DNA of 64,000 nucleotides from Parcubacteria group bacterium GW2011_GWD2_38_12 (GTDB taxonomy: Bacteria; Patescibacteriota; Minisyncoccia; GWC2-36-17): the NCBI GenBank assembly GCA_000992345.1, contig LBUA01000001.1, forward strand, positions 13,542-77,541. Reading direction: 5' to 3'. Made by a program: the position numbers and the translations under genes. How positions within the stretch are numbered: the stretch's first letter is position 1; each line of letters opens with the position of its first letter. The notes beneath the pieces are model-generated. The model worked only from the letters and a program-made list of their open reading frames with translations, had not been told where the DNA came from and did not search any database. This document shows positions 7,780-49,987 of the stretch, in pieces.

Positions 7780-8436
7780 ATGATCAAATTTGATATAATA
7801 ACAATCTTCCCCGAAATTTTCAGCTCGTATTTTGGTAAATCCATTTTAAAGCGCGCGCAGGAGAATGAGTTGATAAAAATCGGCGTTCACGATTTGCGTA
7901 AATTTTCCATTGACAAACACAAAAAAGTGGATGACAAAGCATATGGCGGAGGACCGGGGATGGTGCTCAAAATTGAACCAATTGTTAGAGCAATTGGTTC
8001 AATTTTGAAGTTAAAAGTTAAAAGTAAAAAGTTAAAAGTAAAAAGCAGAGTTATATTATTTTCTACTCGGGGGAAAAAATTCAACAATAAAATTGCCGAA
8101 AAATTGGTAAAATATGATCAATTGATTTTAATTTGCGGTAGATATGAAGGGGTGGACGAGAGGGTAGCCAAATATATTGCCGATGAGGAAATATCCATTG
8201 GAGAGTATGTTTTGACTGGCGGTGAAATTCCGGCGATGGTTTTGGTGGATGCGGTTAGTCGCCATATTCCCGGAGTTTTAGGCAAGCAAGAATCATTAGA
8301 GGAAATAAAGGGATCGTATCCGGTTTATACGCGTCCAGAAGTTTTTGAGATGAGAAATAAAAATTTGCGCGTGCCGAAAGTTTTATTATCCGGCGATCAT
8401 AAAAAAATAGAAGAATGGAGGGAGAAATTTCACTAA
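7780..8436 (+). CDS. trmD: tRNA (guanine37-N1)-methyltransferase TrmD, carrying a Lys-rich insertion from an AAAGTTA heptamer repeat
   Basis: [13 protein letters not shown]-terminus, [16 protein letters not shown] and [11 protein letters not shown] motifs. The annotated ORF start at 7744 overlaps the upstream terminator, so the start is placed at Met 7780. Confidence 0.9.
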
Positions 8437-10588: not shown

Positions 10589-11644
10589 TTGAAACGCTTC
10601 ATGCTTCATATTTTGTGTTTCATGACTGTGATGGATTTACAGCAAAAATTAGAGAATATAAAGAAACTATTTAATCAAAAAATAAGAGATGTAAAAAATC
10701 TTGAAGTTTTGGAAAATTTGCGAGTTCAGTTTTTGGGTAGGAAAAGCGAGTTGGTGGAATTTTTAAAGGGGATTAAAAATTTAACCGAAGAAGAAAAAAG
10801 GAAATTTGGCCCCGTTGCCAATCAATTGAGGCGGGAGATGGAAAAATTAATGGAAGACGCAAAGAAATCGCTTAAAATGCGCGAGGTTGGTAAATTGATG
10901 GAAAAAGATCGTATTGATATTTCTGCTCCAGCCAAAAAAATATCTCAAGGACATTTACACCCATTAACTTTGATACAAAGGAAGATTGAGGATATTTTTC
11001 AGTCTATTGGTTTTGAAGTTGTTGAAGGACCAGAGATAGAGACGGAATACTATAATTTCAATGCCCTAAATATTCCGGCTGATCATCCAGCCAGAGAAAT
11101 GCAAGATACTTTCTGGCTCCAAACTCCAAACTCCAAACTCCAAACTCCAAAGTTACTAATGCGAACACAGACTTCATCTGTTCAGATTAGATACGCGGAA
11201 AATCATCAACCGCCGATTAGAATTATTTCCCCGGGCAGAGTTTTTAGGTTTGAAGCAACTGACCAAACTCACGATATTCAATTTCATCAAATTGAGGGAT
11301 TGATGATTGATAAAAATATTTCCCTTGCCAATCTAAAGGGAGTTTTGGAAATTTTATTTAAAAAGCTTTATGGCAAAGGAGTGGAGGTTCGTTTTAGGCC
11401 CAGTTACTTTCCCTTTGTGGAGCCGGGAGTGGAGGTAGATATGAAATTCAGAGGAAAGTGGATGGAAATTGCGGGCGCCGGAATGGTGCATCCGAAAGTT
11501 TTAAATACCATGAAAATAGATAGTCGCATTTGGCAGGGATTTGCTTTCGGTATGGGGCTTGAGAGATTGGCAATAATTAAATATGGGATTGATGATGTGA
11601 GACTGTTTTCATCGGGAGATTTGAGATTTCTGAAACAGTTTTAA
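10589..11644 (+). CDS. pheS: Phenylalanine--tRNA ligase alpha subunit, with an in-frame ACTCCAA heptamer-repeat insertion
   Basis: Class II aaRS motifs (FRPSYFPFVEPG, GAGMVHP, GMGLERL). The insert reads LQTPNSKLQTPK. Confidence 0.9.
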   Translation: MKRFMLHILCFMTVMDLQQKLENIKKLFNQKIRDVKNLEVLENLRVQFLGRKSELVEFLKGIKNLTEEEKRKFGPVANQLRREMEKLMEDAKKSLKMREVGKLMEKDRIDISAPAKKISQGHLHPLTLIQRKIEDIFQSIGFEVVEGPEIETEYYNFNALNIPADHPAREMQDTFWLQTPNSKLQTPKLLMRTQTSSVQIRYAENHQPPIRIISPGRVFRFEATDQTHDIQFHQIEGLMIDKNISLANLKGVLEILFKKLYGKGVEVRFRPSYFPFVEPGVEVDMKFRGKWMEIAGAGMVHPKVLNTMKIDSRIWQGFAFGMGLERLAIIKYGIDDVRLFSSGDLRFLKQF

Positions 11645-11668: not shown

Positions 11669-12079
11669 ATGGAAGAATTTAAAAAAACTTTAGGACATGG
11701 AAAAGAAGAAGAACATTCTCCCGAAGATTTAAGAAGAGAGATAGTGGAGATGATAGCAAAAATAAAAAAAGAAAACCCGAACGATCCCCATCTTATTAAT
11801 ATAAATACAGAAAATATTAAAGAAGAAGATAGGGAGATACAAAAAAGATATGAGCAACTCTTAAATAAAGGACTGACGTTGACCGAAGAGGAGTATAATG
11901 AATTTTTTAATGAATTTGTCATATATAGAAATAAGGTTTTTAAAGAAATTGAAGAGAAAAAGACACATTCAAGTCGCTTAGACTTTGTTGGTTATTTGGG
12001 AAATAAAATAGCAGGGAAAATTTATGTTCCCTGTAGGAAAAATTGGCCAAATAAAGGGGAGAGACCATTAAAACCATGA
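11669..12079 (+). CDS. Hypothetical highly charged (Glu/Lys-rich) protein between pheS and pheT. Its stop overlaps the pheT start (ATGA).
   Basis: ORF only. No recognisable motifs. Confidence 0.35.
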   Translation: MEEFKKTLGHGKEEEHSPEDLRREIVEMIAKIKKENPNDPHLININTENIKEEDREIQKRYEQLLNKGLTLTEEEYNEFFNEFVIYRNKVFKEIEEKKTHSSRLDFVGYLGNKIAGKIYVPCRKNWPNKGERPLKP

Positions 12080-14637
12080 AAATCTCATATAATTGGTTAA
12101 AAGATTTCGTGAACCTAAAAAGATATTCGGCTCCAGAGCTAGCGGATTTATTGACCATGAACTTTGCGGAAGTCGATGGGATTAAAACGCTTGGCGATGA
12201 TTTGATTTTTGATTTGAAAATTTTACCAGATAGAGCTTCGGATTGCCTGTCGCATTATGGAGTGGCGCGTGAGTTAGCTGCGCTAACAAAGTTAAAAGTT
12301 AAAAGTTTAAAGTTTAAAGTTAAAGAAAGTAAAAAAATAAATATAAAAGATTTGATAGAAGTTGAAAATCAAAATCCGGAGATTTGTAAAAGATATATTT
12401 CGCGAGTAATTTTGGATGTTAAGGTCGGGGCTTCTCCGAAATGGTTGAAAGAGAGACTTGAATCATTGGGTCAAAAATCTATAAATAATGTAGTGGACGC
12501 GACAAATTATGTGATGTTGGAACTGGGGCAACCGATGCATATTTTTGATTTTGATAAAATCAAAAATATGCAAGTTAAAAGTGAAAAGTCCATGCCTACC
12601 GGCAGGCAGGTAAAAGCGCAAAGTGAAATTTCAAAAATTATAATCCGAAAAGCAAAAGTCGGAGAAAAGATAACAACCCTAGATAATCAAGAAATAGAAC
12701 TAAATGAAGATGTTCTTGTAATTGTCGGCTCTGATACTCCAAACTCCAAACTCCAAACTCCAAGCTCTATTCTGGCAATTGCTGGCATAAAAGGCGGAAA
12801 GAAAGCGGAAATAGATCAAAATACCAAAAATATTATTTTGGAATCAGCGAATTTCAGCGCAGAGGCAATACGCAAAGCTTCAAAACTGACTGGAATAAGA
12901 ACAGAGTCTTCTGCCAGGTTTTCCGCTGATTTAGATCCTAATCTAGCGGGTATTGCTATTGAAAGATTGGCATCTTTATTGGTTCAAATTGCTGGAGGGG
13001 AAGCAGTTAGCGGGAAAATAGACATTTATCCACGCAAGGTTATGAGTGCGAAAGTTGCTGTTTCTTTGAATGACGTTATAAGTTTATTGGGAGAGAAAAT
13101 ATCCGAAAAAGAATTTTTGAGTATTTTTAAACAGCTAAACTTTAAGGTAGAAAAGATTTATCAAGAGAAAGAATTAATGAAATTGGCAAGGAAATTTATT
13201 GGCAGGCCATACAAATATGGGGCAAGCACAAGTCAAGATGCTCCCGAAACATTTGATTGCTCCAGTTTTGTTCAATATTTATATTGGCAAATTGGCATTG
13301 AGATTCCCAGAATTTCAGTTGAGCAGTTTTTATTTGCGCGTTCCATTGAAAAGAAAGATTTGAAAATTGGCGATCTGGCTTTTAGAAAAGGAGGAAGGCC
13401 ATATTTCTATAAAGAAACTCCAAGGGGTATTGGACATGTGGGGGTTTATATCGGGAAAGGCAGGGTTGTCCATGCATCCGGAGACAAAAAGAAAGTAATC
13501 GAAGAAAAATTAGAAACATTTTGCAAGAAAGACTTTCGCGGATTTGGAAGAATAGCTGATTTAGGGGATGAGGCTTTTGTCATCGAAATCCCCACATATA
13601 GGAGAGATATCAGAATGAAAGCTGATATTATTGAAGAGATTGGCCGGATTTACGGTTATCAAAATATAAAATCAAAATTGCCTGAAGGTATTCTGATGCT
13701 GCCTCAAAGAAATGATGAGATTTTTTGGGAAAATTTATCAAAAAACGCTTTAGTATCCACTGGATTTACTGAAGTTTATAACTACTCTTTTATCGGTGGA
13801 AAAGATTTAAAGGCGGGTTTTATTATTCCTGAAAATATTTTAGAACTTCAAAATTATATTAGCGATGACAAAAGATATTTGCGACCAAGCTTGATTTTTG
13901 GTTTTCTAAGAAATATCGAAGAAAATTTCAGGTATTTTAATGAGACGCGCATATTTGAAGTTGGCAAAATTTTCACCCTTAATGCAAAAGAAAAAATTTC
14001 TGAGAGAAAGTTTATTGGCGGGGCCATTTCCCTTAAAGGGAAAAGAAATAGCGCAAAAGCTGAGGAATTTTATGAATTAAAAGCCACCGTTGATTTATTG
14101 ATGCAGAAATTGGGTGTGCCGGAATTTTGGTATGATGATTATCAGGCCACGCCCGAGATCATTGAAGGAAAAATTTGGCACCATTTGCGTTTAGCGGAAA
14201 TTAAAATAGGTGACGAGAGAGTCGGATTTATTGGAGAAATAAATCCGAATGTCATTGGAAATTATGATATAGACGGAAGAGTGGCGATGTTTGAAATTGA
14301 TTTTGAAAAATTAGCGTGTCTCGCTAACGAAGATTTTATTTATAGTCCTATATCAAAATTCCCAGCCATAGAAAGAGATTTGGCGATACTTACTCCCATT
14401 AATGTGAAAGTTGATGATGTTTTAAATGTCCTGGAAAATATAGGCGGCCAGTTGCTCATAAATACGGATTTATTTGATGTTTATGAAGGCGATAATATTC
14501 AGGAGGGTAAAAAGAGTTTGGCCTTCCATTTGATATTCCAGTCGCGGGAAAGAACTTTATCCGATAAGGAAGTGGATGAAATTTTAGCCGAAATAATCGT
14601 TGCTTTATCCGAGGAGGGTTGGGAAATTAGAAGATAG
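12076..14637 (+). CDS. pheT: Phenylalanine--tRNA ligase beta subunit that lacks the N-terminal OB (B2) domain and carries an inserted NlpC/P60 domain plus two heptamer-repeat insertions
   Basis: MKISYNWLKDFV N-terminus, B3/4, a B5 motif pair (FKVEKI ... IPTYRRDIRMKADIIEEIGRIYGYQNI) and an FDX-ACB C-terminus. The NlpC/P60 block (RPYKYG, FDCSSFVQY, GHVGVYIG, VHAS) is embedded inside B5. Confidence 0.9.
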   Translation: MKISYNWLKDFVNLKRYSAPELADLLTMNFAEVDGIKTLGDDLIFDLKILPDRASDCLSHYGVARELAALTKLKVKSLKFKVKESKKINIKDLIEVENQNPEICKRYISRVILDVKVGASPKWLKERLESLGQKSINNVVDATNYVMLELGQPMHIFDFDKIKNMQVKSEKSMPTGRQVKAQSEISKIIIRKAKVGEKITTLDNQEIELNEDVLVIVGSDTPNSKLQTPSSILAIAGIKGGKKAEIDQNTKNIILESANFSAEAIRKASKLTGIRTESSARFSADLDPNLAGIAIERLASLLVQIAGGEAVSGKIDIYPRKVMSAKVAVSLNDVISLLGEKISEKEFLSIFKQLNFKVEKIYQEKELMKLARKFIGRPYKYGASTSQDAPETFDCSSFVQYLYWQIGIEIPRISVEQFLFARSIEKKDLKIGDLAFRKGGRPYFYKETPRGIGHVGVYIGKGRVVHASGDKKKVIEEKLETFCKKDFRGFGRIADLGDEAFVIEIPTYRRDIRMKADIIEEIGRIYGYQNIKSKLPEGILMLPQRNDEIFWENLSKNALVSTGFTEVYNYSFIGGKDLKAGFIIPENILELQNYISDDKRYLRPSLIFGFLRNIEENFRYFNETRIFEVGKIFTLNAKEKISERKFIGGAISLKGKRNSAKAEEFYELKATVDLLMQKLGVPEFWYDDYQATPEIIEGKIWHHLRLAEIKIGDERVGFIGEINPNVIGNYDIDGRVAMFEIDFEKLACLANEDFIYSPISKFPAIERDLAILTPINVKVDDVLNVLENIGGQLLINTDLFDVYEGDNIQEGKKSLAFHLIFQSRERTLSDKEVDEILAEIIVALSEEGWEIRR

Positions 14638-17003: not shown

Positions 17004-17567
17004 ATGCAAAACACAAAACACAAAACACAAAATAAAATTATACCTCAAAAATTTTTTGAAAAGCCAACATTGGAAGTGACGGAGAATTTACTTGGGAAAT
17101 ATTTGGTTAGAAAAACAGGTGGTAAGACGATTGCTGGAATAATAACGGAACTGGAAGCATATGTTGGTGAAACTGATTTAGCGTGTCACGCCGCAAAAGG
17201 GCGAACAAAAAGGACAGAGATTATGTATCAAGATGCCGGAACTCTGTATGTTTATATGATTTACGGGATGTTTTATTGTTTGAATGTCGTGACCGAGAAA
17301 AAAGATTTTCCTTCGGCAATATTGATACGGGCAGTAAAAGTAGACGGTATTGATTTTATGGCGACAAGTGGTCCGGGGAAATTATGTAAAATTTTAAAAA
17401 TAGATCGCAAATTCAACGGGTTGAAATTAGGCAAGAAAAGCGGACTTTGGATAGAAGATAGGGGGATAAAAATAAAAAAATCACAAATTATAAAAAGCAA
17501 AAGAATAGGGGTTGATTATGCCGGACATTGTAAAGATTATTTGTGGAGGTTTTCTATTAAAATTTAA
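17004..17567 (+). CDS. mpg: DNA-3-methyladenine glycosylase (Mpg/AAG family); N-terminus encoded by a CAAAACA heptamer repeat
   Basis: TELEAYVGETDLACHA, YVYMIYGMFYCLNVV and GPGKLCK motifs of the AAG fold. Confidence 0.8.
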   Translation: MQNTKHKTQNKIIPQKFFEKPTLEVTENLLGKYLVRKTGGKTIAGIITELEAYVGETDLACHAAKGRTKRTEIMYQDAGTLYVYMIYGMFYCLNVVTEKKDFPSAILIRAVKVDGIDFMATSGPGKLCKILKIDRKFNGLKLGKKSGLWIEDRGIKIKKSQIIKSKRIGVDYAGHCKDYLWRFSIKI

Positions 17568-18584: not shown

Positions 18585-19862
18585 TTGGAGCATTCCGGCA
18601 AATTTTTAATAAAAGGTGGAAGAAAGCTGAGCGGCGAGATTGATATAATGGGCAGCAAAAATGCGGCAACACCGATATTGGCTGCGACATTGTTGACGAG
18701 TGAAGAATGTATTATCGATAACATCCCTTTGATTGAAGATGTATTTAGATTGATTGAAATTTTAAAACACCTTGGCGCAGAAGCTGATTTTATTGGTAAG
18801 AGAAAATTGAAAATAAGAGCAAGAAACATAGACGTAGGTAGATTAAATAATGCAGGCGTTGGCAAATTAAGATCCTCGGTTTTATTGATGGGGCCGCTTC
18901 TCGCTAGATTCAGGAAAATTCAAACCAAAAATCCGGGAGGATGTCTTATCGGTAATCGTCCGCTTGATACTCATCTTGAGGCATTTGTTGATTTAGGAGC
19001 CAAGATTGCGCCAAATGGCAACAATCTTGATATAATTTTAAAAAATAAACCCAAAGATGAAATAGTGCTTAAAGAATTTTCCGTAACTGCGACGGAAAAT
19101 GTCTTAATGTTTGCTTCATTGATGCCACAAAGAACAATTATAAAAATAGCCGCAATGGAGCCACATGTACGAGATTTAATAAAATTTTTACGCGCCATGG
19201 GCGTAAAAATAAAATTATTAGACAGTCATACCATTGAAGTAGTGGGAGTAAAAAAACTTCGCGGCGCAAAGCATAAAATTATTCCGGATCAAATAGAGGC
19301 GGGAACGTTTTTAATAATTGGAGCTTTGATAGGCAGTGATATTTTAGTAAAAAATTGCAGAATAGATCATTTGGATTTAATTTTAAAAAAGTTGAAAGAA
19401 TTTAATATTGATTATAAGTTTGAAAAGCGAAGGGGAAATTTTGCCGATATTAGAATTAAGACAAATTATCCATTAAGAGCGGCAAAGGTTCAGGCGATGC
19501 CATATCCGGGAATTCCTACGGATTTGCAATCAATCTTTGGTGTCTTAGCCACTCAAGCGCAGGGGACAAGCATGATTCATGACCCATTATTTGAAGGAAG
19601 ATTCAAATATCTGGATGAGCTTGTGAAAATGGGTGCTAATGTTGTTGTCTGCGATCCGCACAGAGCATTAATTACCGGTCGGACTCAGCTTCAAGGAACT
19701 AATATAACAAGTTATGATTTACGCGCGGGAGCGTCTTTGATTATTGCAGGCTTGATTGCTAGCGGAGAAACTGTTATAAATGACGCATATCAAGTGGATA
19801 GAGGATATGAAAGGATAGAAGAAAGGTTGCAGAAGTTGGGAGCGGACATAACCAGAATTTAG
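18585..19862 (+). CDS. murA: UDP-N-acetylglucosamine 1-carboxyvinyltransferase (TTG start likely)
   Basis: KFLIKGGRKLSGEIDIMGSKNAATPIL, GNRPLDTHL, and a C-terminal DRGYERIEERL segment that aligns with the E. coli MurA C-terminus. Confidence 0.9.
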   Translation: MEHSGKFLIKGGRKLSGEIDIMGSKNAATPILAATLLTSEECIIDNIPLIEDVFRLIEILKHLGAEADFIGKRKLKIRARNIDVGRLNNAGVGKLRSSVLLMGPLLARFRKIQTKNPGGCLIGNRPLDTHLEAFVDLGAKIAPNGNNLDIILKNKPKDEIVLKEFSVTATENVLMFASLMPQRTIIKIAAMEPHVRDLIKFLRAMGVKIKLLDSHTIEVVGVKKLRGAKHKIIPDQIEAGTFLIIGALIGSDILVKNCRIDHLDLILKKLKEFNIDYKFEKRRGNFADIRIKTNYPLRAAKVQAMPYPGIPTDLQSIFGVLATQAQGTSMIHDPLFEGRFKYLDELVKMGANVVVCDPHRALITGRTQLQGTNITSYDLRAGASLIIAGLIASGETVINDAYQVDRGYERIEERLQKLGADITRI

Positions 19863-19936
19863 AATTTTGAATTTAGAATTTAACGGTATTTAAAACTTAT
19901 ATTCTAAATACTACATTTTATAATTCTTTCAAGAAC

Positions 19937-23435: not shown

Positions 23436-24587
23436 TTGCGAGTTGACACTTTTATTTTTGTCAATCGTCAATCGTCAATTGTCAATCGTTTTTTGAAAGT
23501 AGCAATTTCATTAATTATTATTTTTCTTATTTTAGGCGCTATTTTGTTTTTTGCAGTTCCTTTTTTGTTGCAAAATATTTCTTTTCCCGGATTTTCGTCT
23601 AGTGGCTCAGGCATTGCCGGAATTTTCAAGACCATTGATGGGGGCGATTTTTGGTTTTCAAAAAATAATATTGAATCTTCAAAGTCAACGATTGGATCCG
23701 CAAATATTTTGGATTTAGTTCTTGACCCTTTTGATAATAATATTATGTATGCGGGTACTAATGGCGCCGGGATTCTTAAAAGCATAAATAATGGCGAGAG
23801 CTGGAAACGATTAGTTGATGACAATAACTTATTGGCATCTAGCGCGGTTATCAATCAAATTGCGATTAACCCTCGTGACCCCGCTCATATTTTTATTGCC
23901 GCTTTTCAGGGAGGCAGTGGCGGCATTTTTAAAACAGAAGATGCGGGACGTAGTTGGAAGCAGCTTTACATCGTTCCGTTGGCGAAACAAGACATTAAGA
24001 CGTTGGTGATTGATCCTTTAAATCCTAATTTTCTTTATGCTGGCACTACGGCTGGAGGGTTTTTGGTCAGTTCTGACGGGGGGGAGTCATGGAGAGCGCT
24101 TAAATGGTTTTTCGACCCGATAAAGAAGATTGTAATAAATCCGTTTTCATCGGCAGAGCTTTTTTTGGTTCTTGAAAACAGGGGGTTTTATAAGACGGCC
24201 GATAGGGGAGAGAACTGGAAAGATTTAACCCATACTTTTTCTGGCTATCCGTCGGCTATTAGAGTAGAGAATATTGTTTTAGATCCTCAAAGACCCAACG
24301 TTTTGTATATGACTTCCATGTATGGATTATTGAAATCTACTGATGGCGGAAATAGCTGGAGGTCGCTTAAAATTTTAGTGTCGCCCGAGACTCTGCCCGT
24401 GCAAGACATCGCAATTGATAGAAATAATTATAAGATGATTTATATAAGTGCAGGATCTAAGATTTATATTTCTAATGATGAGGGAGAGAATTGGACTGTA
24501 AAAAGTTTAAATACCGGAAAAAACGCGAAGCTAATTAGGATAGATTATAAAAATCCAAAAGTAATTTTTGTGGGGATACATAAATAA
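23436..24587 (+). CDS. Membrane-anchored BNR/Asp-box repeat beta-propeller protein (Ycf48/sortilin-like). Start codon uncertain (TTG).
   Basis: N-terminal TM helix, then six or more S-x-D-x-G-x-(S/T)-W Asp-box repeats (NNGESW, DAGRSW, DGGESW, DRGENW, DGGNSW, DEGENW). Confidence 0.7.
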   Translation: MRVDTFIFVNRQSSIVNRFLKVAISLIIIFLILGAILFFAVPFLLQNISFPGFSSSGSGIAGIFKTIDGGDFWFSKNNIESSKSTIGSANILDLVLDPFDNNIMYAGTNGAGILKSINNGESWKRLVDDNNLLASSAVINQIAINPRDPAHIFIAAFQGGSGGIFKTEDAGRSWKQLYIVPLAKQDIKTLVIDPLNPNFLYAGTTAGGFLVSSDGGESWRALKWFFDPIKKIVINPFSSAELFLVLENRGFYKTADRGENWKDLTHTFSGYPSAIRVENIVLDPQRPNVLYMTSMYGLLKSTDGGNSWRSLKILVSPETLPVQDIAIDRNNYKMIYISAGSKIYISNDEGENWTVKSLNTGKNAKLIRIDYKNPKVIFVGIHK

Positions 24588-25316: not shown

Positions 25317-26399
25317 ATGCTCACTTTTATTATTTTTATATTAGTTCTTGGCGTTTTGGTGGTTGTCCATGAATTCGGGCATTTTTGGATTGCGCGTAGA
25401 AATGGTGTTCGCGTTGATGAGTTTGGTTTTGGTTTTCCGCCAAAACTTTTGGGCATTAAAAGAGGCGAGACATTATATTCTTTCAATGCCTTGCCACTTG
25501 GCGGATTTGTAAAAATTTTCGGAGAAGATATGGAAGAGGGGAAAGATGATCCGCGAAGTTTTGCGACTAAAAGCGTTGGAGCAAGATTTCGTATTATCGT
25601 TGCGGGAGTGGTGATGAATTTTATTTTAGCCGTTGTTTTATTTTCTTTCGGGTCTGCTATTGGTTTGCCCAGCGCCATAGACGGGTCTAACGAAAAATAT
25701 GCCCGTGATATCAGTGTGCAGATTATTGGTGTAGCAAAAAATTCGCCGGCGGAATTATCAGGGATTAAGATGGGGGATAAGATTTTGGAAGTTGGAGGTT
25801 GGAAGTTGGAAGTTGGAGACAGCCAAATTGAAAAAATTCAGAAAGTAATAAGCGAAAACAAGGGGCAAGAAATAATTATCACTGTTCAAAGAAAAGATGA
25901 AATTTTGAATATCAAAACAATTCCAAGGGTTGAAATTCCGAAAGACGAAGGGGCGTTAGGCATTGCGATGGCCAAAGTCGGTATAGTTGCCTATCCAGTT
26001 TACCTGGCGCCAATTAAGGGGGTGGAAGCGGCTTTTGGCGTCGGAATAAATTTTATTCACTCAGTCTATTCAATATTTAATATATGGATTACTGACGGAA
26101 GAATGATAGGAGACATTGCCGGCCCGGTGGGAATTTTCACTTTAACCGGACAAGCCGCGCGACTTGGATTTATTTATCTTCTGCAATTTGTCGCGATGCT
26201 TTCTGTTAATCTGGCGATTATTAACGCTGTTCCTTTTCCGGCGCTTGACGGAGGAAGATTATTATTTTTAGGGTTGGAAAAAATAAAGGGTTCGCCGATA
26301 AGCATTAAATGGGAAAAATACGCCCATATTATCGGTTTCGCGATTTTAATTTTATTGATCTTATTGATTACATATAAAGATGTAAGGAGAATGTTTTAG
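25317..26399 (+). CDS. rseP: RIP metalloprotease RseP (site-2 protease) with a PDZ domain; carries a GAAGTTG heptamer-derived insert
   Basis: HEFGHF zinc motif in TM1, a PDZ domain, and the C-terminal LDGG motif (NAVPFPALDGGR). Confidence 0.85.
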   Translation: MLTFIIFILVLGVLVVVHEFGHFWIARRNGVRVDEFGFGFPPKLLGIKRGETLYSFNALPLGGFVKIFGEDMEEGKDDPRSFATKSVGARFRIIVAGVVMNFILAVVLFSFGSAIGLPSAIDGSNEKYARDISVQIIGVAKNSPAELSGIKMGDKILEVGGWKLEVGDSQIEKIQKVISENKGQEIIITVQRKDEILNIKTIPRVEIPKDEGALGIAMAKVGIVAYPVYLAPIKGVEAAFGVGINFIHSVYSIFNIWITDGRMIGDIAGPVGIFTLTGQAARLGFIYLLQFVAMLSVNLAIINAVPFPALDGGRLLFLGLEKIKGSPISIKWEKYAHIIGFAILILLILLITYKDVRRMF

Positions 26400-32069: not shown

Positions 32070-32133
32070 AAAAGAGACAAACGCAAAATGCTTGACTTTT
32101 GAGAAGTAACCTTTTATCATTCAAAGTTATTAA

Positions 32134-32202
32134 ATTCGCTATTCGCTAATCGCTATTCGCTAATCGTTTTTTATGATTTGCGTTTTGCATTTTGCGTTTT
32201 GC
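32134..32202. repeat. Intergenic tandem repeats (ATTCGCTA/ATCGCTA units, then GCGTTTTGCATTTTGCGTTTTGC)
   Basis: Direct reading of attcgctattcgctaatcgctattcgctaatcg ... gatttgcgttttgcattttgcgttttgc. Confidence 0.8.
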
Positions 32203-32213
32203 TTTTTAGCAAG

Positions 32214-32712: not shown

Positions 32713-32792
32713 TCTTGTCTAAATGTGTTTTTTTAGCTAAACTTAAAACATATAACATGAAATATATAACATGAAACACAAAGCATTTTTTA

Positions 32793-34337
32793 TTGAATTT
32801 TTGCTCCATGTTTCATATTTCATGTTCCACAAAGTTGGCTTCTATTGAAGAAATTCGCGATAATCGCATAAAAAAACTGGAAGAATTAAGGAAATTCGAC
32901 ATAAATCCATATCCCGCAAAAAGCGGAAGGAATTTTTCTATTGCCGATATTTTGACTGATTTTGATAATTTAGCGCAAGATAAAAAAGAAGTGATTTTAG
33001 CCGGAAGGATTACTTCTTTGCGCGGTCAAGGCGCTTTGATATTCGTAGATCTGAAGGATGGCAGTGGGAGTATCCAACTTTTTTTTAAAAAAGATAATTT
33101 TAGCGACAGTGATTTTGAAAAATTACAAAACTTGTTTGATATAGGAGATATTGTGGAATCCGGCGGTATTTTGTTCGTCACTAAACGTGGCGAGAAAACT
33201 CTGGAAGTTAAAAATTTCAGGATTTTGACTAAAAGTTTAAGACCGATACCCACGGAATTTTACGGACTTTCCGATATTGAAGAACGCTATCGTAGAAGAT
33301 ATTTGGATCTCCTATTGAATGATGATGTTAGAGAAAAATTCATTAAGCGCAGTAAAATTATAAATGTTTTGAGAGAATTTTATAATACAAAAGGATATTT
33401 GGAGGTGGAAACGCCGATATTACAGACAATCCCGGGTGGAGCAACTGCCAAACCATTTAAAACACATTTAAATGCGCTTGATCTTGATTTATATTTGCGC
33501 ATTGCCCCGGAACTTTATTTAAAACGTCTTTTGGTGGGTGGGTTTGAAAAAGTTTATGAAATAGGAAGGTGTTTTCGCAACGAAGGAATGGACGCGACTC
33601 ACAACCCCGATTTCACGATGCTTGAAAGCTATAGCGCTTATGAAAATTACAAAGATTTAATGATTATGGTGGAACGATTGATGGAATTTTTGATTGCCAA
33701 AATCTATCCCGACGCGGAAAACTATAGAATAGAATATAAAGAACAAAAAATTATTTTTAAGGCCCCATACATGATAATAGAATTTACGGAGCTGTTAAAA
33801 GAACATTTTAAGATTGATTATGATGAAATGTCTGAAGACGAATTATTTAAATTTGCGGAAAAAGAAATTAAAAATAGAAAAAGTGATTTAAAGTTAAAAC
33901 AGGGTATGCATAAAGGAAAAATAGCTGATGAGCTTTATAAGGAGTTCATAAGAAGTGAAATCATTCAGCCGATATTTATGATAAATCATCCTCTTGAACT
34001 TTCTCCGCTTGCTAAAAAAACAGAAGAAAATCCCTTGAAAGTGGAAAGATTTCAATTGATTGTTGCGGGGATTGAATTAATGAATGGATATTCCGAGCTC
34101 AATGATCCAATTGATCAGCATAAAAGATTCAGAGAGCAGGAAAATATCGGAAAATCCGGAGATGAGGAAGTGCAAAGACTTGATATTGATTATATTGAAG
34201 CATTGGAATATGGCATGCCTCCAGCTGCCGGGCTTGGTATTGGCGTTGAACGGTTAGTGATGCTTCTGACTGATTCCCAGACCTTGAGAGAATCCATGCT
34301 TTTCCCGACAATGAAACCTCGCGGTGAGGGAAGATGA
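32793..34337 (+). CDS. lysS: Lysine--tRNA ligase (class II). True start probably a few codons downstream of the annotated ORF start.
   Basis: N-terminal OB anticodon-binding domain, class II motifs 1-3 (FRNEGMDATHNPDFT, ...GIELMNGYSELNDP..., GLGIGVERLVMLL). Confidence 0.9.
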   Translation: MNFCSMFHISCSTKLASIEEIRDNRIKKLEELRKFDINPYPAKSGRNFSIADILTDFDNLAQDKKEVILAGRITSLRGQGALIFVDLKDGSGSIQLFFKKDNFSDSDFEKLQNLFDIGDIVESGGILFVTKRGEKTLEVKNFRILTKSLRPIPTEFYGLSDIEERYRRRYLDLLLNDDVREKFIKRSKIINVLREFYNTKGYLEVETPILQTIPGGATAKPFKTHLNALDLDLYLRIAPELYLKRLLVGGFEKVYEIGRCFRNEGMDATHNPDFTMLESYSAYENYKDLMIMVERLMEFLIAKIYPDAENYRIEYKEQKIIFKAPYMIIEFTELLKEHFKIDYDEMSEDELFKFAEKEIKNRKSDLKLKQGMHKGKIADELYKEFIRSEIIQPIFMINHPLELSPLAKKTEENPLKVERFQLIVAGIELMNGYSELNDPIDQHKRFREQENIGKSGDEEVQRLDIDYIEALEYGMPPAAGLGIGVERLVMLLTDSQTLRESMLFPTMKPRGEGR

Positions 34338-34925: not shown

Positions 34926-35090
34926 GAAATAAAATTAAAAGAGCTATCTTTCGGGATTGCTCTTTTTTGTCTTTAAAGTATACTTTTAGTAATGATATAG
35001 AGAGAGAAATGTGAAAGTAATTTCTCTTGTCTCCGAGCCGAGCCTGCCTGTAGGCAGGCAGGGAGTTGACGCAGGTTAATGCCTTTAGTA

Positions 35091-35848: not shown

Positions 35849-35906
35849 CTTTTAGATTCTATTTAAGAAGTTAACAATTAACAATTAACAATTAATAGCT
35901 AATTCA

Positions 35907-37184: not shown

Positions 37185-37190
37185 TCATAA

Positions 37191-37224
37191 CATTTGACGT
37201 CTGACATTTGACGCCTGACATTTT
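37191..37224. repeat. Intergenic tandem repeat CATTTGACG(T/C)CTGA x2.5
   Basis: catttgacgtctgacatttgacgcctgacatttt. Confidence 0.8.
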
Positions 37225-39365: not shown

Positions 39366-40541
39366 CTAATATTTTATCTTAATAAAATCATTATATAATT
39401 TTTCGTATTCTAAGACAATATTTTCAATAGCGTATTTTTGAGCCGCTTTTTGGGAGTTTTCCGACATTTTTTGTCTTAAGGTCGGGTTTTCTATTAATTT
39501 GGTTATCTCTTTTGAGAGTTCGATAAAGCTGTACCTTTCCGTTATGAGACCGGTTGTTCCATGTTCTACATATTCATCGATTGGGGATTTGGCGACAATT
39601 TGCGGCAGGCCTAGAGCCATTGCCTCAAATATCGGCAAGGGCTGATTTTCGGTATCTGATGCGGTAATAAAAATATCATTTGCAGCCACGGCATCGATGA
39701 AATTTTGGTCTATCAACATGCCAAAAAATATGACCTTGTCTCTAATGTTTAATCTTTTCGCGAATTTTTCAAGATTTTTTCTCTCCGGTCCATCGCCAAT
39801 TAAGGAAAGTTTTATTTTGGGATATTTTGGCGAAAGAAGCGCAAAAACTTTCAAGAGTTCATGGATTCTTTTCTCGTAGGTAATTTTTCCGAAATAAACT
39901 AAAGAAAATTCTGGCAAACCACAACGTTTTTTTAGTATATCTTTTTGCGCTGATGGTTTAAATTTAGAAATATCTATTGAGTTGGGAATAATAGAAACTG
40001 GAGCAGTAAGACCGTTTTTGATAAGATTCTCCGCAATGGTTTTTGACGGTACAATGACTATTTTACAGGAGTTATAAAATTTAACAATTTCTTTTTTAAG
40101 GAGGAATTCCGAAAGAAATGATCGACTTTTTATTATATGTTCTATATAGTTGGCATAAAAAGTATGGTGGGATCCGATTAGGGGAAGTTTTAAGATGCGA
40201 GCGACTTTTCGCGCTTCGTGGCCGGCGAAAAAGGGCGTATGAGCATGAATAACATCGGGATTTAATGAAAGAATATCCCGAAAGCCGGGGTTTATGGGAT
40301 GGAAGATATTTTTCAGATTAAAATATTCGTTTTTTGCTCTGTAGATTTCTATAAGTTGCGGTTTTTCAAAGTCGTTATCTATATTATTCTCTGATGATTG
40401 GTTTGTGAAAATAGAAACATTGTGGCCGTGATTTGCAAGTTCGTGGCTTAATGTTTGGAGAGAAACAGAAATACTGTTTATGTCCGGAAGAAAAGTGTCG
40501 GAAAAAAAGGAGATACGCATAAAATATGAAACATGTAACAT
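39366..40541 (-). CDS. Glycosyltransferase family 4
   Basis: GT-B fold. C-terminal region FITASDTENQPLPIFEAMALGLPQIV (E-x7-E). Confidence 0.8.
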   Translation of the reverse strand: MLHVSYFMRISFFSDTFLPDINSISVSLQTLSHELANHGHNVSIFTNQSSENNIDNDFEKPQLIEIYRAKNEYFNLKNIFHPINPGFRDILSLNPDVIHAHTPFFAGHEARKVARILKLPLIGSHHTFYANYIEHIIKSRSFLSEFLLKKEIVKFYNSCKIVIVPSKTIAENLIKNGLTAPVSIIPNSIDISKFKPSAQKDILKKRCGLPEFSLVYFGKITYEKRIHELLKVFALLSPKYPKIKLSLIGDGPERKNLEKFAKRLNIRDKVIFFGMLIDQNFIDAVAANDIFITASDTENQPLPIFEAMALGLPQIVAKSPIDEYVEHGTTGLITERYSFIELSKEITKLIENPTLRQKMSENSQKAAQKYAIENIVLEYEKLYNDFIKIKY

Positions 40542-40582
40542 GAAATATGTAATCCGCCGTGGCGGACTTCATGATTCATGAG

Positions 40583-42521: not shown

Positions 42522-44192
42522 TTATTTAATTATATAATTAAATCCTTCCCCCTTTTCTAATTTTCCGGGAGCCAGAGATTGCAATTGTTTTGTTAAATTA
42601 TCATCATACTCCATTAATATAATAACATACGATTTATCATCATAAAAATTTCGCTTTTTTATATCGTTCGGCAATAAATAAATTATATTCTTTTCAAGTT
42701 GGTTGGTTTTTTTATAGCTGTTTGTTATAAACATTGTTGTCTGACTGGACATGGGAATGTTATTGACCAGTGCGCCCCCGCTATTTATTATTACGTATTT
42801 TTTTATATCCCCGGGCAGATTATTGATAAATCGGCCGATTTTAACGTAATTGTCGGAGAAAGCTCCTTTTATATTGGGATTATTAGCATAATTGACAAAG
42901 TATTTTCGATATCCGCTAAATGCCACGTAAAATAAGATAATAAAATATAGTGGCATAATTAATTTCTTGTTGGAATATAGGAAGATTTTCTTTTTAAAAA
43001 AATTATAAAGTGTAAAAGTTCCAAGGCCGGCAAGTATGAATGTTGGAGGGATGGCGCCGATGGATCTTAAAGCATGCGGCAGGCCTTCGGTGCTCAAGAT
43101 TGACGGAGCAAGCATAGCGGAAAACCACGCAAGTAAAAATATGTGTTGCAAGGGGATGGGATTGTGCGGGAATTTTTTCAGTAATTGGTAGCAGAATTTC
43201 AGGAATTTTTTTAAACAGATGAAAATACCGATTAAGAAGAAAATGCCGACAGGCCAGAAAAGCAATGGTGAACCCGCAAAGTTATGCCGCCAATTCCAGT
43301 CGCCAATAAAATTAAATTGCGCAAGTGTCAAAATAGAGCTTTTTATTACTTCTGTTATTGGATTCTCCGAAGCGAAAATCGAAACCTGTCCGGCTCTGCC
43401 GATGAAATCATCCGGATGAATGTAGAAATAATAGAATATCGGCAATGCCGCAAGAAGGGCAAAAGAGCCGTAAATAACGATGTTATAGAAGAATTCTTTT
43501 AATAATTCTTTTTTGTTTGCGCTATTTTCAATATCGCCGGCGCCATTTGTTCTTATTATTTCAATTAATTTAAAAATCAAAACTGCAATTACCACAATTG
43601 GAACGATACGAAAAGCGATATAGGTGTGAAAACCAAGACCCATGAATATGCCAGCCCAAATAAAATTAATATTTTTTTTAGTTCTAAATCCTTTAAATAA
43701 AAAATAAAAAGAAAAAGTCGTGAGAAACGGCAACATAATGGCGCGAAAACCAATACGGGAGAAGTTTGTATGCCAGAAGCTCACAGCGAGAAAGAAAGAT
43801 GATAAAAGAGCAATAATTTTTGAATTATGAAGTATGAATTTTGAATTATGGAGATTATTTTCTGGCTCCAATTCTTGATTCATAATTCTTGATTCATAAT
43901 TCTTTTTGCAAAAAAGCTCTTTGGTCAATAAATACACTCCTAAAACTGTTAATACGCCAAACAATGCGCTTACTAGTCGCAATGCCCACGGCTCATTGCC
44001 GAATGTCGCGACAGATAGCGCCTGGATATTTATAAAAAGTCCTTCGCGACCGTTATTTTCCGGATAAAATATCTTAAAATTTCCAGTTGAGAGCGCTTCC
44101 AGCGCGTTGTTGCCGTTCATAGCTTCGTCCGGGTAAAGTCCGGGCGGCATCTGGGCTATATTGTAGAAACGGAAAAAAGTCGCTATAATCAA
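42522..44192 (-). CDS. Polytopic membrane glycosyltransferase, GT-C superfamily (ArnT/PMT-like), second paralogue
   Basis: N-terminal RFYNIAQMPPGLYPDEAMNG (DE motif in the first extracytoplasmic loop), and more than 10 TM helices. Confidence 0.55.
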   Translation of the reverse strand: MIIATFFRFYNIAQMPPGLYPDEAMNGNNALEALSTGNFKIFYPENNGREGLFINIQALSVATFGNEPWALRLVSALFGVLTVLGVYLLTKELFCKKNYESRIMNQELEPENNLHNSKFILHNSKIIALLSSFFLAVSFWHTNFSRIGFRAIMLPFLTTFSFYFLFKGFRTKKNINFIWAGIFMGLGFHTYIAFRIVPIVVIAVLIFKLIEIIRTNGAGDIENSANKKELLKEFFYNIVIYGSFALLAALPIFYYFYIHPDDFIGRAGQVSIFASENPITEVIKSSILTLAQFNFIGDWNWRHNFAGSPLLFWPVGIFFLIGIFICLKKFLKFCYQLLKKFPHNPIPLQHIFLLAWFSAMLAPSILSTEGLPHALRSIGAIPPTFILAGLGTFTLYNFFKKKIFLYSNKKLIMPLYFIILFYVAFSGYRKYFVNYANNPNIKGAFSDNYVKIGRFINNLPGDIKKYVIINSGGALVNNIPMSSQTTMFITNSYKKTNQLEKNIIYLLPNDIKKRNFYDDKSYVIILMEYDDNLTKQLQSLAPGKLEKGEGFNYIIK

Positions 44193-48684: not shown

Positions 48685-48766
48685 TTATAGATTTATAACA
48701 CACAGAGCATGCAGCATGAAGTCCGCCGCGGCGGATTCATGTTTCATGTCTCATGTTTTATGTTGC

Positions 48767-49882
48767 ATGAGCTTAGTTTTATATCGTAAATATCGTCCTA
48801 AAACTTTTGCCGAGATTAGCGGGCAAAAGCATATTGTTGAAACCTTGGTCAATGCCATAAAGAGCGGGCGAGTAGCGCATGCCTATTTATTTTGCGGTCC
48901 GCGCGGCACAGGCAAGACGACTATGGCGCGTTTACTTGCCAAAGCATTAAATTGCGAAAAACTTTTAACTTTTAACTTTAAACTTTCAACTGACCCAATA
49001 GAGCCGTGTAATAAATGTTTGAGTTGTCAGTCAATCAACGATGGCAATGCTCTGGATATCATTGAAATAGACGCGGCTTCCAATAGGGGTATTAATGAAA
49101 TTCGCGATTTGCGCGAAGGAGTAAAATTTTCTCCAGCCGCGCTTAAATACAAAGTATTTATTATTGACGAGGTACATATGTTAACCAAAGAAGCGTTCAA
49201 TGCTCTGCTTAAAACACTGGAAGAGCCGCCCCAGCACGCCATTTTTATTTTGGCCACAACCGAAGCGAATAAAATACCAGCGACGATTTTATCGCGTTGT
49301 CAGAGATTTGATTTTAGAAAATTATCGGTCAATGAGATTATAGAAAGGCTGAATGGAATTATAAAAAAGGAGGGGATAGATTGCGGCGATGATGTTGTAA
49401 GCTTTATTGCGACAATCAGCGATGGCGGACTTCGCGATGCTGAGTCATTGCTTGGCCAAATTATTAGCGTATCGAGCGGGAAAATAGATTTGGAAACGGT
49501 TCAGGATGTTTTAGGGATTGCCGACATGAGAGATGTATATGCATTTGTTGATTTGCTTATTAATAATAATCATCAGGAAATTTTTAAATTTATCAATAAT
49601 CTTTTTAATCAGGGAAAAGATATGGCGGAGTTTATGAGATCATCTTCTAATTATTTAAGAAAAATGATGATTTGTCAGATTGACAATGCGCTTGTTGCCA
49701 CCGTAGCCAAAGATATGACACGCGAACAACAGGTAAATTTGTGCTCCCAGGCGCAAAAATTTGAAAATGCCAAGATTCATAAAATAGTGGCCCGACTAGT
49801 GGATGCTGAAAATCAAATTAAAAAATCATTCTCTCCTATTATTCCCATTGAGCTTGCTATGATTGATATTTTAGGGATATAA
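48767..49882 (+). CDS. dnaX: DNA polymerase III subunit gamma/tau (short, gamma-like), with an in-frame TTAACTT (reverse AAAGTTA) heptamer insert
   Basis: YRPKTFAEISGQKHIV, Walker A GPRGTGKTT, Zn module CNKCLSCQ, DEVHML and SRCQRF. The insert reads LLTFNFKLSTD between the Walker A and the zinc module. Confidence 0.9.
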   Translation: MSLVLYRKYRPKTFAEISGQKHIVETLVNAIKSGRVAHAYLFCGPRGTGKTTMARLLAKALNCEKLLTFNFKLSTDPIEPCNKCLSCQSINDGNALDIIEIDAASNRGINEIRDLREGVKFSPAALKYKVFIIDEVHMLTKEAFNALLKTLEEPPQHAIFILATTEANKIPATILSRCQRFDFRKLSVNEIIERLNGIIKKEGIDCGDDVVSFIATISDGGLRDAESLLGQIISVSSGKIDLETVQDVLGIADMRDVYAFVDLLINNNHQEIFKFINNLFNQGKDMAEFMRSSSNYLRKMMICQIDNALVATVAKDMTREQQVNLCSQAQKFENAKIHKIVARLVDAENQIKKSFSPIIPIELAMIDILGI

Positions 49883-49884
49883 TT

Positions 49885-49912
49885 TTCTAGCTTCTAGCTT
49901 CTAGCTTCTAGC
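49885..49912. repeat. TTCTAGC heptamer x4 tandem repeat immediately upstream of tRNA-Gln
   Basis: ttctagcttctagcttctagcttctagc. Confidence 0.85.
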
Positions 49913-49916
49913 TTTT

Positions 49917-49987
49917 TGCGGGATCGTCTAATGGTAGGACTCCGCCCTTTGAAGGCGGCTATCTTGGTTCGAATCCAGGTCCCGCAG
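49917..49987 (+). tRNA. tRNA-Gln (anticodon UUG), CCA not encoded
   Basis: Manual cloverleaf: acceptor TGCGGGA/TCCCGCA (U1-A72, G73 discriminator as in bacterial tRNA-Gln), D-arm GTCT-AATGGTA-GGAC, anticodon arm CCGCC-CTTTGAA-GGCGG, T-arm CTTGG-TTCGAAT-CCAGG. Confidence 0.85.

Follow-up and report, generated by a model that had tools for sequence, protein, structure and literature searches.

Two adjacent genes of a Parcubacteria genome, pheS and pheT, encode the subunits of phenylalanyl-tRNA synthetase (PheRS) and carry short perfect tandem arrays of the same heptanucleotide, ACTCCAA. We analyzed these arrays in a 64,000-nt stretch of Parcubacteria group bacterium GW2011_GWD2_38_12 (assembly GCA_000992345.1, contig LBUA01000001.1, positions 13,542–77,541; hereafter the window, whose own coordinates are used below). 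Period-7 arrays of many different units turned out to be scattered through the window, a feature that an earlier sequence-only reading of this DNA had overlooked. We favor, at a probability of roughly 60%, an explanation in which a mutational regime particular to this lineage, 7-nt slippage and template switching screened by reading frame, produced the ACTCCAA arrays. The pairing of the two PheRS subunits is incidental to the adjacency of their genes.

Arrays were detected with Tandem Repeats Finder and a scan of our own, and Markov simulations served as the null. The window holds 13 period-7 arrays of at least 3.5 copies, against none in the simulations, and 16 of at least three copies, both ACTCCAA arrays included. 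At the same cut-off, periods 5–6 and 9–15 gave no array and period 8 gave one, and the run-length spectrum agrees. The units are many and mutually unrelated, with a typical copy number of ~4–5. Most arrays lie inside long open reading frames (ORFs) with the Pfam identity of housekeeping genes, and a few are intergenic; the host genes include trmD, pheS, pheT, dnaX and those for a methylpurine glycosylase (MPG), a BNR protein, an M50 protease, glycosyltransferases and GtrA. The weight that the sequence-only reading had placed on the two subunits of one enzyme is lost once arrays are also seen in trmD, the MPG glycosylase, the M50 protease, dnaX, glycosyltransferases and intergenic DNA.

A homolog search identifies the host as a Patescibacteria/Parcubacteria bacterium of the candidate phyla radiation (CPR). 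We compared homologous loci in relatives and other assemblies (L-codes) and members of protein clusters (P-codes). By PheS, the closest known relative is L004 at 85% identity; the protein search found no PheS relatives between 85% identity and the 90% cluster, and a metagenome scan returned one strain at 97–99% identity, the remaining relatives standing at ~40%. Period-7 arrays are present in the syntenic relatives of 35–41% GC (L004, L208, L209, L210 and L211), and none was found in ~50 kb of the syntenic 44% GC relatives L001, L005 and L006.

The array in pheS, the gene for the phenylalanine-tRNA ligase alpha subunit (10,622–11,644, plus strand; assigned by its ORF, homologs and Pfam PF01409/PF02912, with the start as in cluster member P0122), is a perfect 35-bp (CTCCAAA)x5 at 11,117–11,151 on the plus strand. 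It encodes LQTPNSKLQTPK in the loop between DTFW and LLMRTQTS, giving W-LQTPNSKLQTPK-LL at the protein level. Both arrays are thus real and in frame, as had been claimed, but pheS has five perfect units rather than the four first counted. The loop ranges in length from 4 to ~28 residues among relatives of 72–85% identity, and E. coli PheS, aligned through its solved chain, has a gap there and is 8 residues shorter. L208 has the shortest form, CTC CAA GCT CCA AGA, which is (CTCCAAG)x2 and encodes LQAPR, and in L007 the same loop contains four degenerate units of the CTCCAAG/CTCCAAA family. Because L208 keeps the two-unit seed, L007 a degenerate array and the window five perfect units, this comparison shows an in situ expansion of an ancestral (CTCCAAG)x2 seed from two to five units (+21 bp, +7 amino acids). 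An AlphaFold2 monomer model of PheS is mediocre (mean predicted local distance difference test score, pLDDT, 74; predicted template modeling score, pTM, 0.59); residues 154–179, which include the array loop, have a pLDDT below 50 and no regular secondary structure, and the neighboring segments are also poor.

Short perfect repeats may be mis-assembled, and heptanucleotide simple sequence repeats (SSRs) drive phase variation in Haemophilus (PMC8262952), so an assembly artefact or a hypermutable contingency locus had to be weighed. Both are scarcely credible here. The pheS array is unchanged in L008, L128, L249, L250 and L251, JGI and ENA assemblies that come from different samples. No full-length sequence of the 90% protein cluster departs from it, and among these are four NCBI metagenome-assembled genome (MAG) entries for Parcubacteria, KKP99050.1, KKQ52821.1, KKQ59025.1 and KKQ59241.1; the pheT array is unchanged in the 99%-identical strain L128 save for one single-nucleotide polymorphism. 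These identical arrays in at least five independent assemblies rule out the artefact that the sequence-only reading had named as its possible refutation. On the available data, phase variation is ruled out as well, with no copy-number variant in any assembly or full-length cluster member, even in L128, which has indels elsewhere. The host genes are essential, so that a gain or loss of one unit would be lethal and not a switch, and the arrays of pheS, pheT, trmD and dnaX lie mid-gene, and not in the promoter or at the 5' end of a surface or host-interaction gene, where unit changes in a contingency locus would switch expression. The arrays have constant copy numbers across the strains compared and are best described as frozen insertions and not contingency loci.

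Several smaller differences among these assemblies fall outside the arrays. Relative to the window, L128 has indels of 15, 4, 5 and 21 bp at 8852, 10819, 11665 and 12109, at least some of them at short direct repeats; the 4-bp indel, (CAAT)2 to one copy, would frameshift pheS and may be a sequencing error or a defective variant. P0126/L250 PheS has perfect tandem duplications of 8 (QKLENIKK) and 10 (GFAFGMGLER) amino acids, alongside a trmD-pyrG fusion call, and these duplications of 24 and 30 bp are either real or assembly errors. Between pheS and pheT (11,669–12,079) lies an ORF of 133–142 amino acids with no Pfam hit, which is conserved in most relatives, 106 amino acids long in L001, and absent from L005 and L003.

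The second array lies in pheT, the beta-subunit gene (12,076–14,637, plus strand), whose ORF, Pfam matches and E. coli alignment delineate B3/4, NlpC/P60 insert, B5, core and FDX-ACB domains. A perfect (ACTCCAA)x4 at 12,736–12,763 on the plus strand encodes TPNSKLQTP, in the context D-TPNSKLQTP-SS, and falls within a 30-bp (+10 amino acids) insertion in the B3/4 domain; GCTCT stands on both sides, at 12,728–12,732 and 12,764–12,768. The array is absent from all seven relatives that cover the site (L004, L001, L003, L005, L007, L210 and L208), six of which have a short [A/T][D/N]xxx[P/A]-LAIAG form, while L208 has its own unrelated +7-amino-acid insert; E. coli PheT, again aligned by its solved chain, has a gap there. 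No two-unit seed was found at the site in any relative covering it. These alignments show the pheT array as a younger, apparently unseeded 30-bp insertion, and place both the pheS expansion and the pheT insertion after the split from L004. The 3' junction of the pheT array, CTCCAAGCTC, equals ancestral pheS sequence, a weak hint that pheS may have been the donor.

Two further observations concern PheT. Residues 376–485 (13,201–13,530) form, by Pfam, an NlpC/P60 (cell-wall peptidase-like) domain before B5 that is conserved across the clade (also in L001, L003, L004 and L005) and is unusual for an aminoacyl-tRNA synthetase. At the N-terminus (12,076–12,200), residues 1–40 align to residues 1–39 of E. 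coli PheT and residue 41 to residue 154, so that ~115 N-terminal residues of the E. coli beta subunit are missing.

How exclusive the shared unit is became clear from a two-unit ACTCCAA probe with at most one mismatch, which matched only the pheS and pheT loci in the whole window (seven overlapping matches; none in 100 shuffles). This confirms the earlier observation of one heptamer, in the sense orientation, in two places 1.6 kb apart. We extended the census by 9 kb upstream (L249:1-9090) and 7.8 kb downstream (L252:1-7826), to 81 kb in total with the window, and found no further ACTCCAA array; many unrelated genes with the same array, which would have made the pair unremarkable, do not occur in the window and these ~17 kb of flanks. 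Five exact same-unit pairs exist among the 16 arrays (AAGTTAA in three, ACTCCAA in two, CATGAAA in two), against 0.28 expected when units are drawn from the window's own heptamers (P<0.0005), and the expected number of array pairs that are both ACTCCAA is 1.7e-4. Separations within same-unit pairs are 1.6, 4.2, 8.2, 37 and 41 kb, so that the 'local' sharing first proposed gives way to sharing of other units over 4–41 kb.

An intrinsic preference for ACTCCAA was rejected as the cause, as viral contigs contain 6 ACTCCAA stretches against 10, 10 and 11 for three control units of the same composition. Genome contigs from many phyla contain at least 119 ACTCCAA stretches, and among the matches listed (119 ACTCCAA loci, 837 kb, many phyla) there are 159 other period-7 arrays, compared with 1–12 for any single other period between 4 and 10, so that loci of this kind are heptamer-rich in general. 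That the peptides are identical carries no information beyond the match in DNA, because 3 x 7 = 21 and any in-frame (ACTCCAA)n gives one cyclic heptapeptide. With 1.7e-4 pairs expected, no ACTCCAA preference and a stop-codon filter of only ~2-fold, these counts make an independent random origin of the shared unit very unlikely, and templated copying between same-unit arrays is likely; some templated copying, or a lineage-specific unit preference, is needed for the unit sharing. The earlier choice of copy-paste over independent slippage is borne out to the extent that the unit is shared against expectation, that ACTCCAA is not preferred and that template-switch signatures are abundant, but it fails for pheS, where a two-unit seed underwent slippage-type expansion in situ.

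The same comparisons bear on the opposite view, that both ACTCCAA arrays arose by independent slippage in situ and share a unit only through a filter for sequences that are stop-free in six frames and encode a benign hydrophilic peptide. Some observations agree with such a filter. Only 43% of heptamers in the window lack stop codons on both strands. ACTCCAA is among them; like CAAAACA, it has no stop in any of the six frames, and both units stay perfect inside genes, and AAGTTAA, which contains TAA, has a variant unit at the would-be in-frame TAA codon in 3/3 coding arrays (trmD, pheT site 1, and dnaX on the opposite strand). Moreover, pheS clearly expanded in situ, different units occupy the same loops in different lineages, and the D-x-x-P of relatives at the pheT site means that a single ACTCCA-like copy may already have been there. 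However, a filter that narrows the choice of unit only ~2-fold falls far short of the ~10^3–10^4-fold needed for coincidence. The stop-containing units AAGTTAA and CATGAAA are shared just as often, and the pheT site lacks a two-unit seed in every relative. We therefore consider a fully independent origin unlikely.

Arrays in pheT and trmD also adjoin perfect hairpins. The 17/17 hairpin in pheT (12,536–12,572, plus strand) has the conserved MH(A/I)FDF codons as its left arm, and its right arm repeats those upstream codons in inverted orientation and makes up the initial 17 nt of a lineage-specific insert. L001 and L005, which are without the insert, have no hairpin. Among six further lineages it is strong in L208, L007, L210 and L211, imperfect in L004 and degenerate in L003, with sequences that differ between lineages (14–17 bp) and a left arm that encodes the conserved HAFDFD motif. 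Across the seven sequences, the arms covary: 87% of cells are paired compared with 27–50% when the partners are slid, 0/500 shuffles match this, and 8/17 pairs are changed on both sides. Folding z-scores range from -7 to -9 (window, L208, L007 and L210), and the left arm in the window carries a non-consensus Ala-to-Ile change, found elsewhere only in L208, that matches the right arm. A heptamer array starts at the 3' end of the hairpin in the window, L004, L007, L208, L210 and L211, built from differing units (AAGTKAA, AAGCGAA, GAAATCC and AAGTTCA); in the window it is a partial AAGTTAA/AAGTGAA array (12,572–12,589, plus strand) that begins at the last base of the 3' arm.

The trmD gene repeats this arrangement. 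An 18/18 perfect hairpin (7,967–8,008, plus strand) sits within sequence of ancestral length, and an AAGTTAA-family array (8,008–8,045, plus strand; identical in L249–L251) begins at its last base. The orthologs in L005, L006 and L209 have equal protein length and no significant hairpin, and L208 has a weak outer stem only, so the trmD hairpin was perfected without a change in length, as is characteristic of a template-switch product. Inverted partner arrays occur at 32754/32798, 43822/43878 and 32071/32187 and in the pheS loops of L004 and L209. Quasipalindromes are known to be perfected when one arm templates the other, and tandem repeats to expand by misalignment of the nascent strand (PMC6357072); the hairpins, the inverted partners and an array that overwrites existing sequence, described below, match this known mutagenesis.

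The pheT hairpin could be either a functional RNA or DNA structure or a self-perfecting quasipalindrome. More broadly, the arrays, the hairpins or both might be functional and selected, as a heptapeptide for both PheRS subunits, as protein-bound heptamer iterons, or as regulatory hairpins. The arrays are fixed and invariant across assemblies, an array at pheT 'site 1' is unusually conserved in DNA (36/36 with L004), and pairing in the pheT hairpin is kept by compensatory changes in seven lineages. These observations are offset by several others. Units at the same site differ between lineages; the closest relative has no ACTCCAA arrays and its PheRS must work without them; arrays also occur in unrelated genes and intergenic DNA; and peptide identity is automatic for a 7-nt unit. 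Rfam families at the arrays and hairpins gave no match, one tRNA being the only hit, and hairpins can stay perfect in the absence of selection when one arm serves as the template that corrects the other (PMC6357072). Functional selection is accordingly an improbable source of the arrays.

The site-1 array, KLKVKSLKFKVK of the AAGTTAA family (12,288–12,324, plus strand), has a core of 36 nt that is identical at 36/36 positions in L004 and at 33/36 in L007, and L208 has (AAGTTTC)x3.6 at the same place. The segment that this array fills has kept its length in all relatives, so arrays can replace sequence already present and not only add to it. Within the post-hairpin array, pheT carries a 21-bp GC-rich quasi-palindromic insert, CCATGCCTACCGGCAGGCAGG (12,590–12,610, plus strand; 71% GC), between AAAAGT and TAAAA, and removing it restores collinearity with L004. 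The same 21-mer with the same flanks (32-nt identity) occurs in L210:3538-3558, at pheT site 1 and in another frame, where its removal restores the L007 sequence; it was found once per genome sampled. This 21-mer may be either a tiny insert targeting AAGT^TAA or the result of ectopic conversion between same-unit arrays. Its distribution indicates that short sequences move between same-unit arrays, and on this ground templating is a plausible origin for the ACTCCAA array of pheT. A palindrome related to the 21-mer, GCCTGCCTACAGGCAGGC, lies at 35,036–35,066 on the minus strand.

The 21-mer, inserted at AAGT^TAA in two different places, is also an argument for reading the arrays as footprints or cargo of a miniature mobile element that inserts in frame, akin to miniature inverted-repeat transposable elements (MITEs), repetitive extragenic palindromic (REP) sequences or Rickettsia palindromic elements (RPEs), the last of which are reportedly a precedent for in-frame selfish inserts. 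GCTCT on both sides of the pheT array would fit such an insertion, ambiguously. Yet neither terminal inverted repeats nor a conserved element body is present in the arrays, their units are diverse and unrelated, the pheS array grew from a local seed, no transposase was seen beside the arrays, although none was specifically looked for, and the hairpin arms derive from local coding sequence, all of which render a mobile element very improbable. A second idea, possible but doubtful, goes beyond the regime we favor: the clade might have a hyperactive or dedicated template-switching system that writes in-frame arrays and self-perfecting hairpins and moves sequences between same-unit arrays, including the 21-bp GC-rich hairpin that targets AAGT^TAA, with the pheS-to-pheT copy as one event.

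In the mechanism that we favor, slippage and template switching under a frame filter, the nascent strand in this low-GC Parcubacteria clade would often misalign in a 7-nt register or switch template, leaving the chromosome with short heptamer arrays and perfect hairpins. In such a gene-dense genome, the survivors would be events that keep the frame and avoid stop codons in indel-tolerant loops, and these would become fixed as stable loop insertions in essential proteins. The pheT array would most likely have been templated from a pre-existing array of the same unit, for which the pheS array 1.6 kb upstream is the obvious and simplest candidate donor.

Several points weigh against this account. 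Of the two arrays, only the pheT one, absent from 7/7 relatives, looks like an unseeded insertion that would suit the copy-paste first proposed, and pheS is no more than a candidate donor, tied to pheT beyond the repeat by a 4-nt junction match only. The pheT insert is 30 bp, not 21 or 28, and the account does not predict the GCTCT junctions on its two sides. Same-unit sharing also spans 37–41 kb, so a nearby donor is not required. A gain of three units without lethal frameshifted intermediates is a step that we infer. The ACTCCAA control comes from viral contigs and not from the host lineage, which leaves room for a lineage-specific unit preference or peptide-level selection, and the hairpin covariation could reflect selection for a functional structure instead of mutational perfecting.

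The remaining arrays of the window extend the pattern to other genes and to intergenic DNA. On the plus strand, (CAAAACA)x3.7 at 17,007–17,032 adds 7 amino acids to the N-terminus of the methylpurine-DNA glycosylase relative to L005, (GTCAATC)x4.3 at 23,458–23,489 lies near the N-terminus of the BNR-repeat protein, and (TTGGAAG/TTGGAGG)x4.7 at 25,785–25,817 lies in the M50 (RseP-type) protease, with one unit that is a single mismatch from the reverse complement of ACTCCAA. Outside any ORF of at least 90 amino acids are (AGAATTT)x4.1 at 19,854–19,882, with a partial inverted partner at 19,897–19,920, and (TTAACAA)x3.9 at 35,869–35,895. Adjacent arrays of ATTCGCT x4.7 and TTTGCGT x4.4 (32,134–32,207), the second complementary to 32,071–32,091, are probably upstream of the greA start codon, and just downstream of greA a CATGAAA-family array and an inverted partner array form a hairpin (32,746–32,826). 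On the minus strand, a CATGAAA-family array occupies 40,518–40,552 in a GT4 glycosyltransferase, and a TGAATTA array with an inverted AATTCAT partner (14-bp superperiod) occupies 43,818–43,904 in a PMT-family glycosyltransferase. The N-terminal part of dnaX (48,734–48,991, plus strand) has two arrays whose units, TTCATGT and AACTTTT, are reverse complements of the CATGAAA family and of AAGTTAA, respectively. A perfect intergenic (TTCTAGC)x4.3 at 49,885–49,914 takes up the space that separates the stop codon of dnaX from a tRNA gene at 49,917–49,987.

Insert sizes differ among the coding arrays: +7 amino acids in MPG and PheS, ~+5 in TrmD, +10 at PheT site 2 and 0 at PheT site 1, which rules out a uniform +21-bp rule. 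Two variant heptamers alternate with a 14-bp superperiod at 8008–8045, 32136–32166, 32177–32207, 32746–32778, 37190–37223, 40526–40552 and 43870–43904, and because this superperiod recurs in many arrays it suggests that two-unit blocks may also have been duplicated. All 16 arrays fall within a 42-kb domain (8.0–49.9 kb) of the 81 kb (P=0.0004, or 0.003 with tight clusters merged), and no period-7 arrays occur in the 39 kb on either side of it (-9 kb to 8 kb and 50–72 kb), a weak hint in favor of the proposed regime. A replication landmark was rejected as the reason for this clustering, as GC skew is uniformly positive with no switch, so that no origin or terminus explains it.

The window arrays belong to a known class, the bacterial heptamer SSRs, combined with template-switch mutagenesis. 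Many bacteria have an excess of heptameric SSRs, which in Xanthomonas and Nostoc form unit families and inverted pairs, and polymerase slippage is the proposed cause (PMC4692102); examples are GGGAATC in Xanthomonas, GGGGAYT in Nostoc and the STRR heptamers of Calothrix/Nostoc (Mrazek et al. 2007, as cited in PMC4692102). The window arrays resemble these in their period-7-specific excess, few recurrent unit families, ~3–5 or more units and frequent inverted pairs. Unlike them (mainly intergenic and G-rich or G4-prone), the window arrays are A/T-rich, lie mostly in essential housekeeping genes, are filtered for frame and stop codons, are coupled to hairpins in coding sequence, and occur in a CPR/Parcubacteria lineage, for which our literature searches found no report of such heptamer arrays. 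Template-switch mutagenesis (Ripley 1982; Lovett laboratory, PMC6357072) is likewise matched by multi-base templated perfecting without length change in trmD, by one arm templating the other in pheT, and by tandem repeats that expand through nascent-strand misalignment. In reporter assays, however, such events are rare, whereas here they appear as a dominant clade-wide evolutionary signature, with hairpin-plus-array composites retained over long divergence.

Other systems are similar in part. Borg tandem repeats (PMC9879509) are likewise fast-arising perfect repeats in ORFs that encode low-complexity, probably disordered segments and appear independently in related genomes. Borg ORF repeat units are divisible by three and belong to an archaeal extrachromosomal element (PMC9879509), whereas the 7-nt unit of this bacterial chromosome takes three units per frame-preserving step. 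The phase-variable SSR loci of Haemophilus (PMC8262952) share tandem short units, including heptamers, in or near genes, and differ from the window in that the arrays here lack copy-number polymorphism, have essential housekeeping hosts and lie mid-gene.

RPEs, reportedly described by Ogata et al. in 2000 as selfish DNA that sits in frame within protein-coding genes, are conserved elements ~100–150 bp long that spread as copies. Like them, the window arrays place repeated DNA in frame in essential genes, including aminoacyl-tRNA synthetases, with function kept and at positions that may be surface-exposed and tolerant of indels; unlike them, the inserts are locally generated 21–35-bp arrays of variable heptamers, and only the 21-bp GC-rich insert resembles a copied element.

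Odd insertions in conserved genes are a known trait of CPR bacteria, and here the source of such insertions is readable as 7-nt slippage and template switching, filtered by frame and stop codons. The outcome is lineage-specific loops of 5–10 or more residues in the essential enzymes PheRS, TrmD and DnaX. The same data counsel caution, as peptide motifs shared by adjacent genes need not be functional. Concrete leads that can be tested are offered by the hairpin-plus-array composites and by the shared 21-mer, and the clade offers a natural system for asking why bacterial replisomes favor 7-nt misalignment. Should a hyperactive or dedicated template-switching system exist after all, it would be an undescribed engine of protein-loop evolution and the 21-mer possibly the smallest known site-specific mobile insert. 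If the regime is general, it would explain part of the protein-length inflation and loop hypervariability of CPR genomes.

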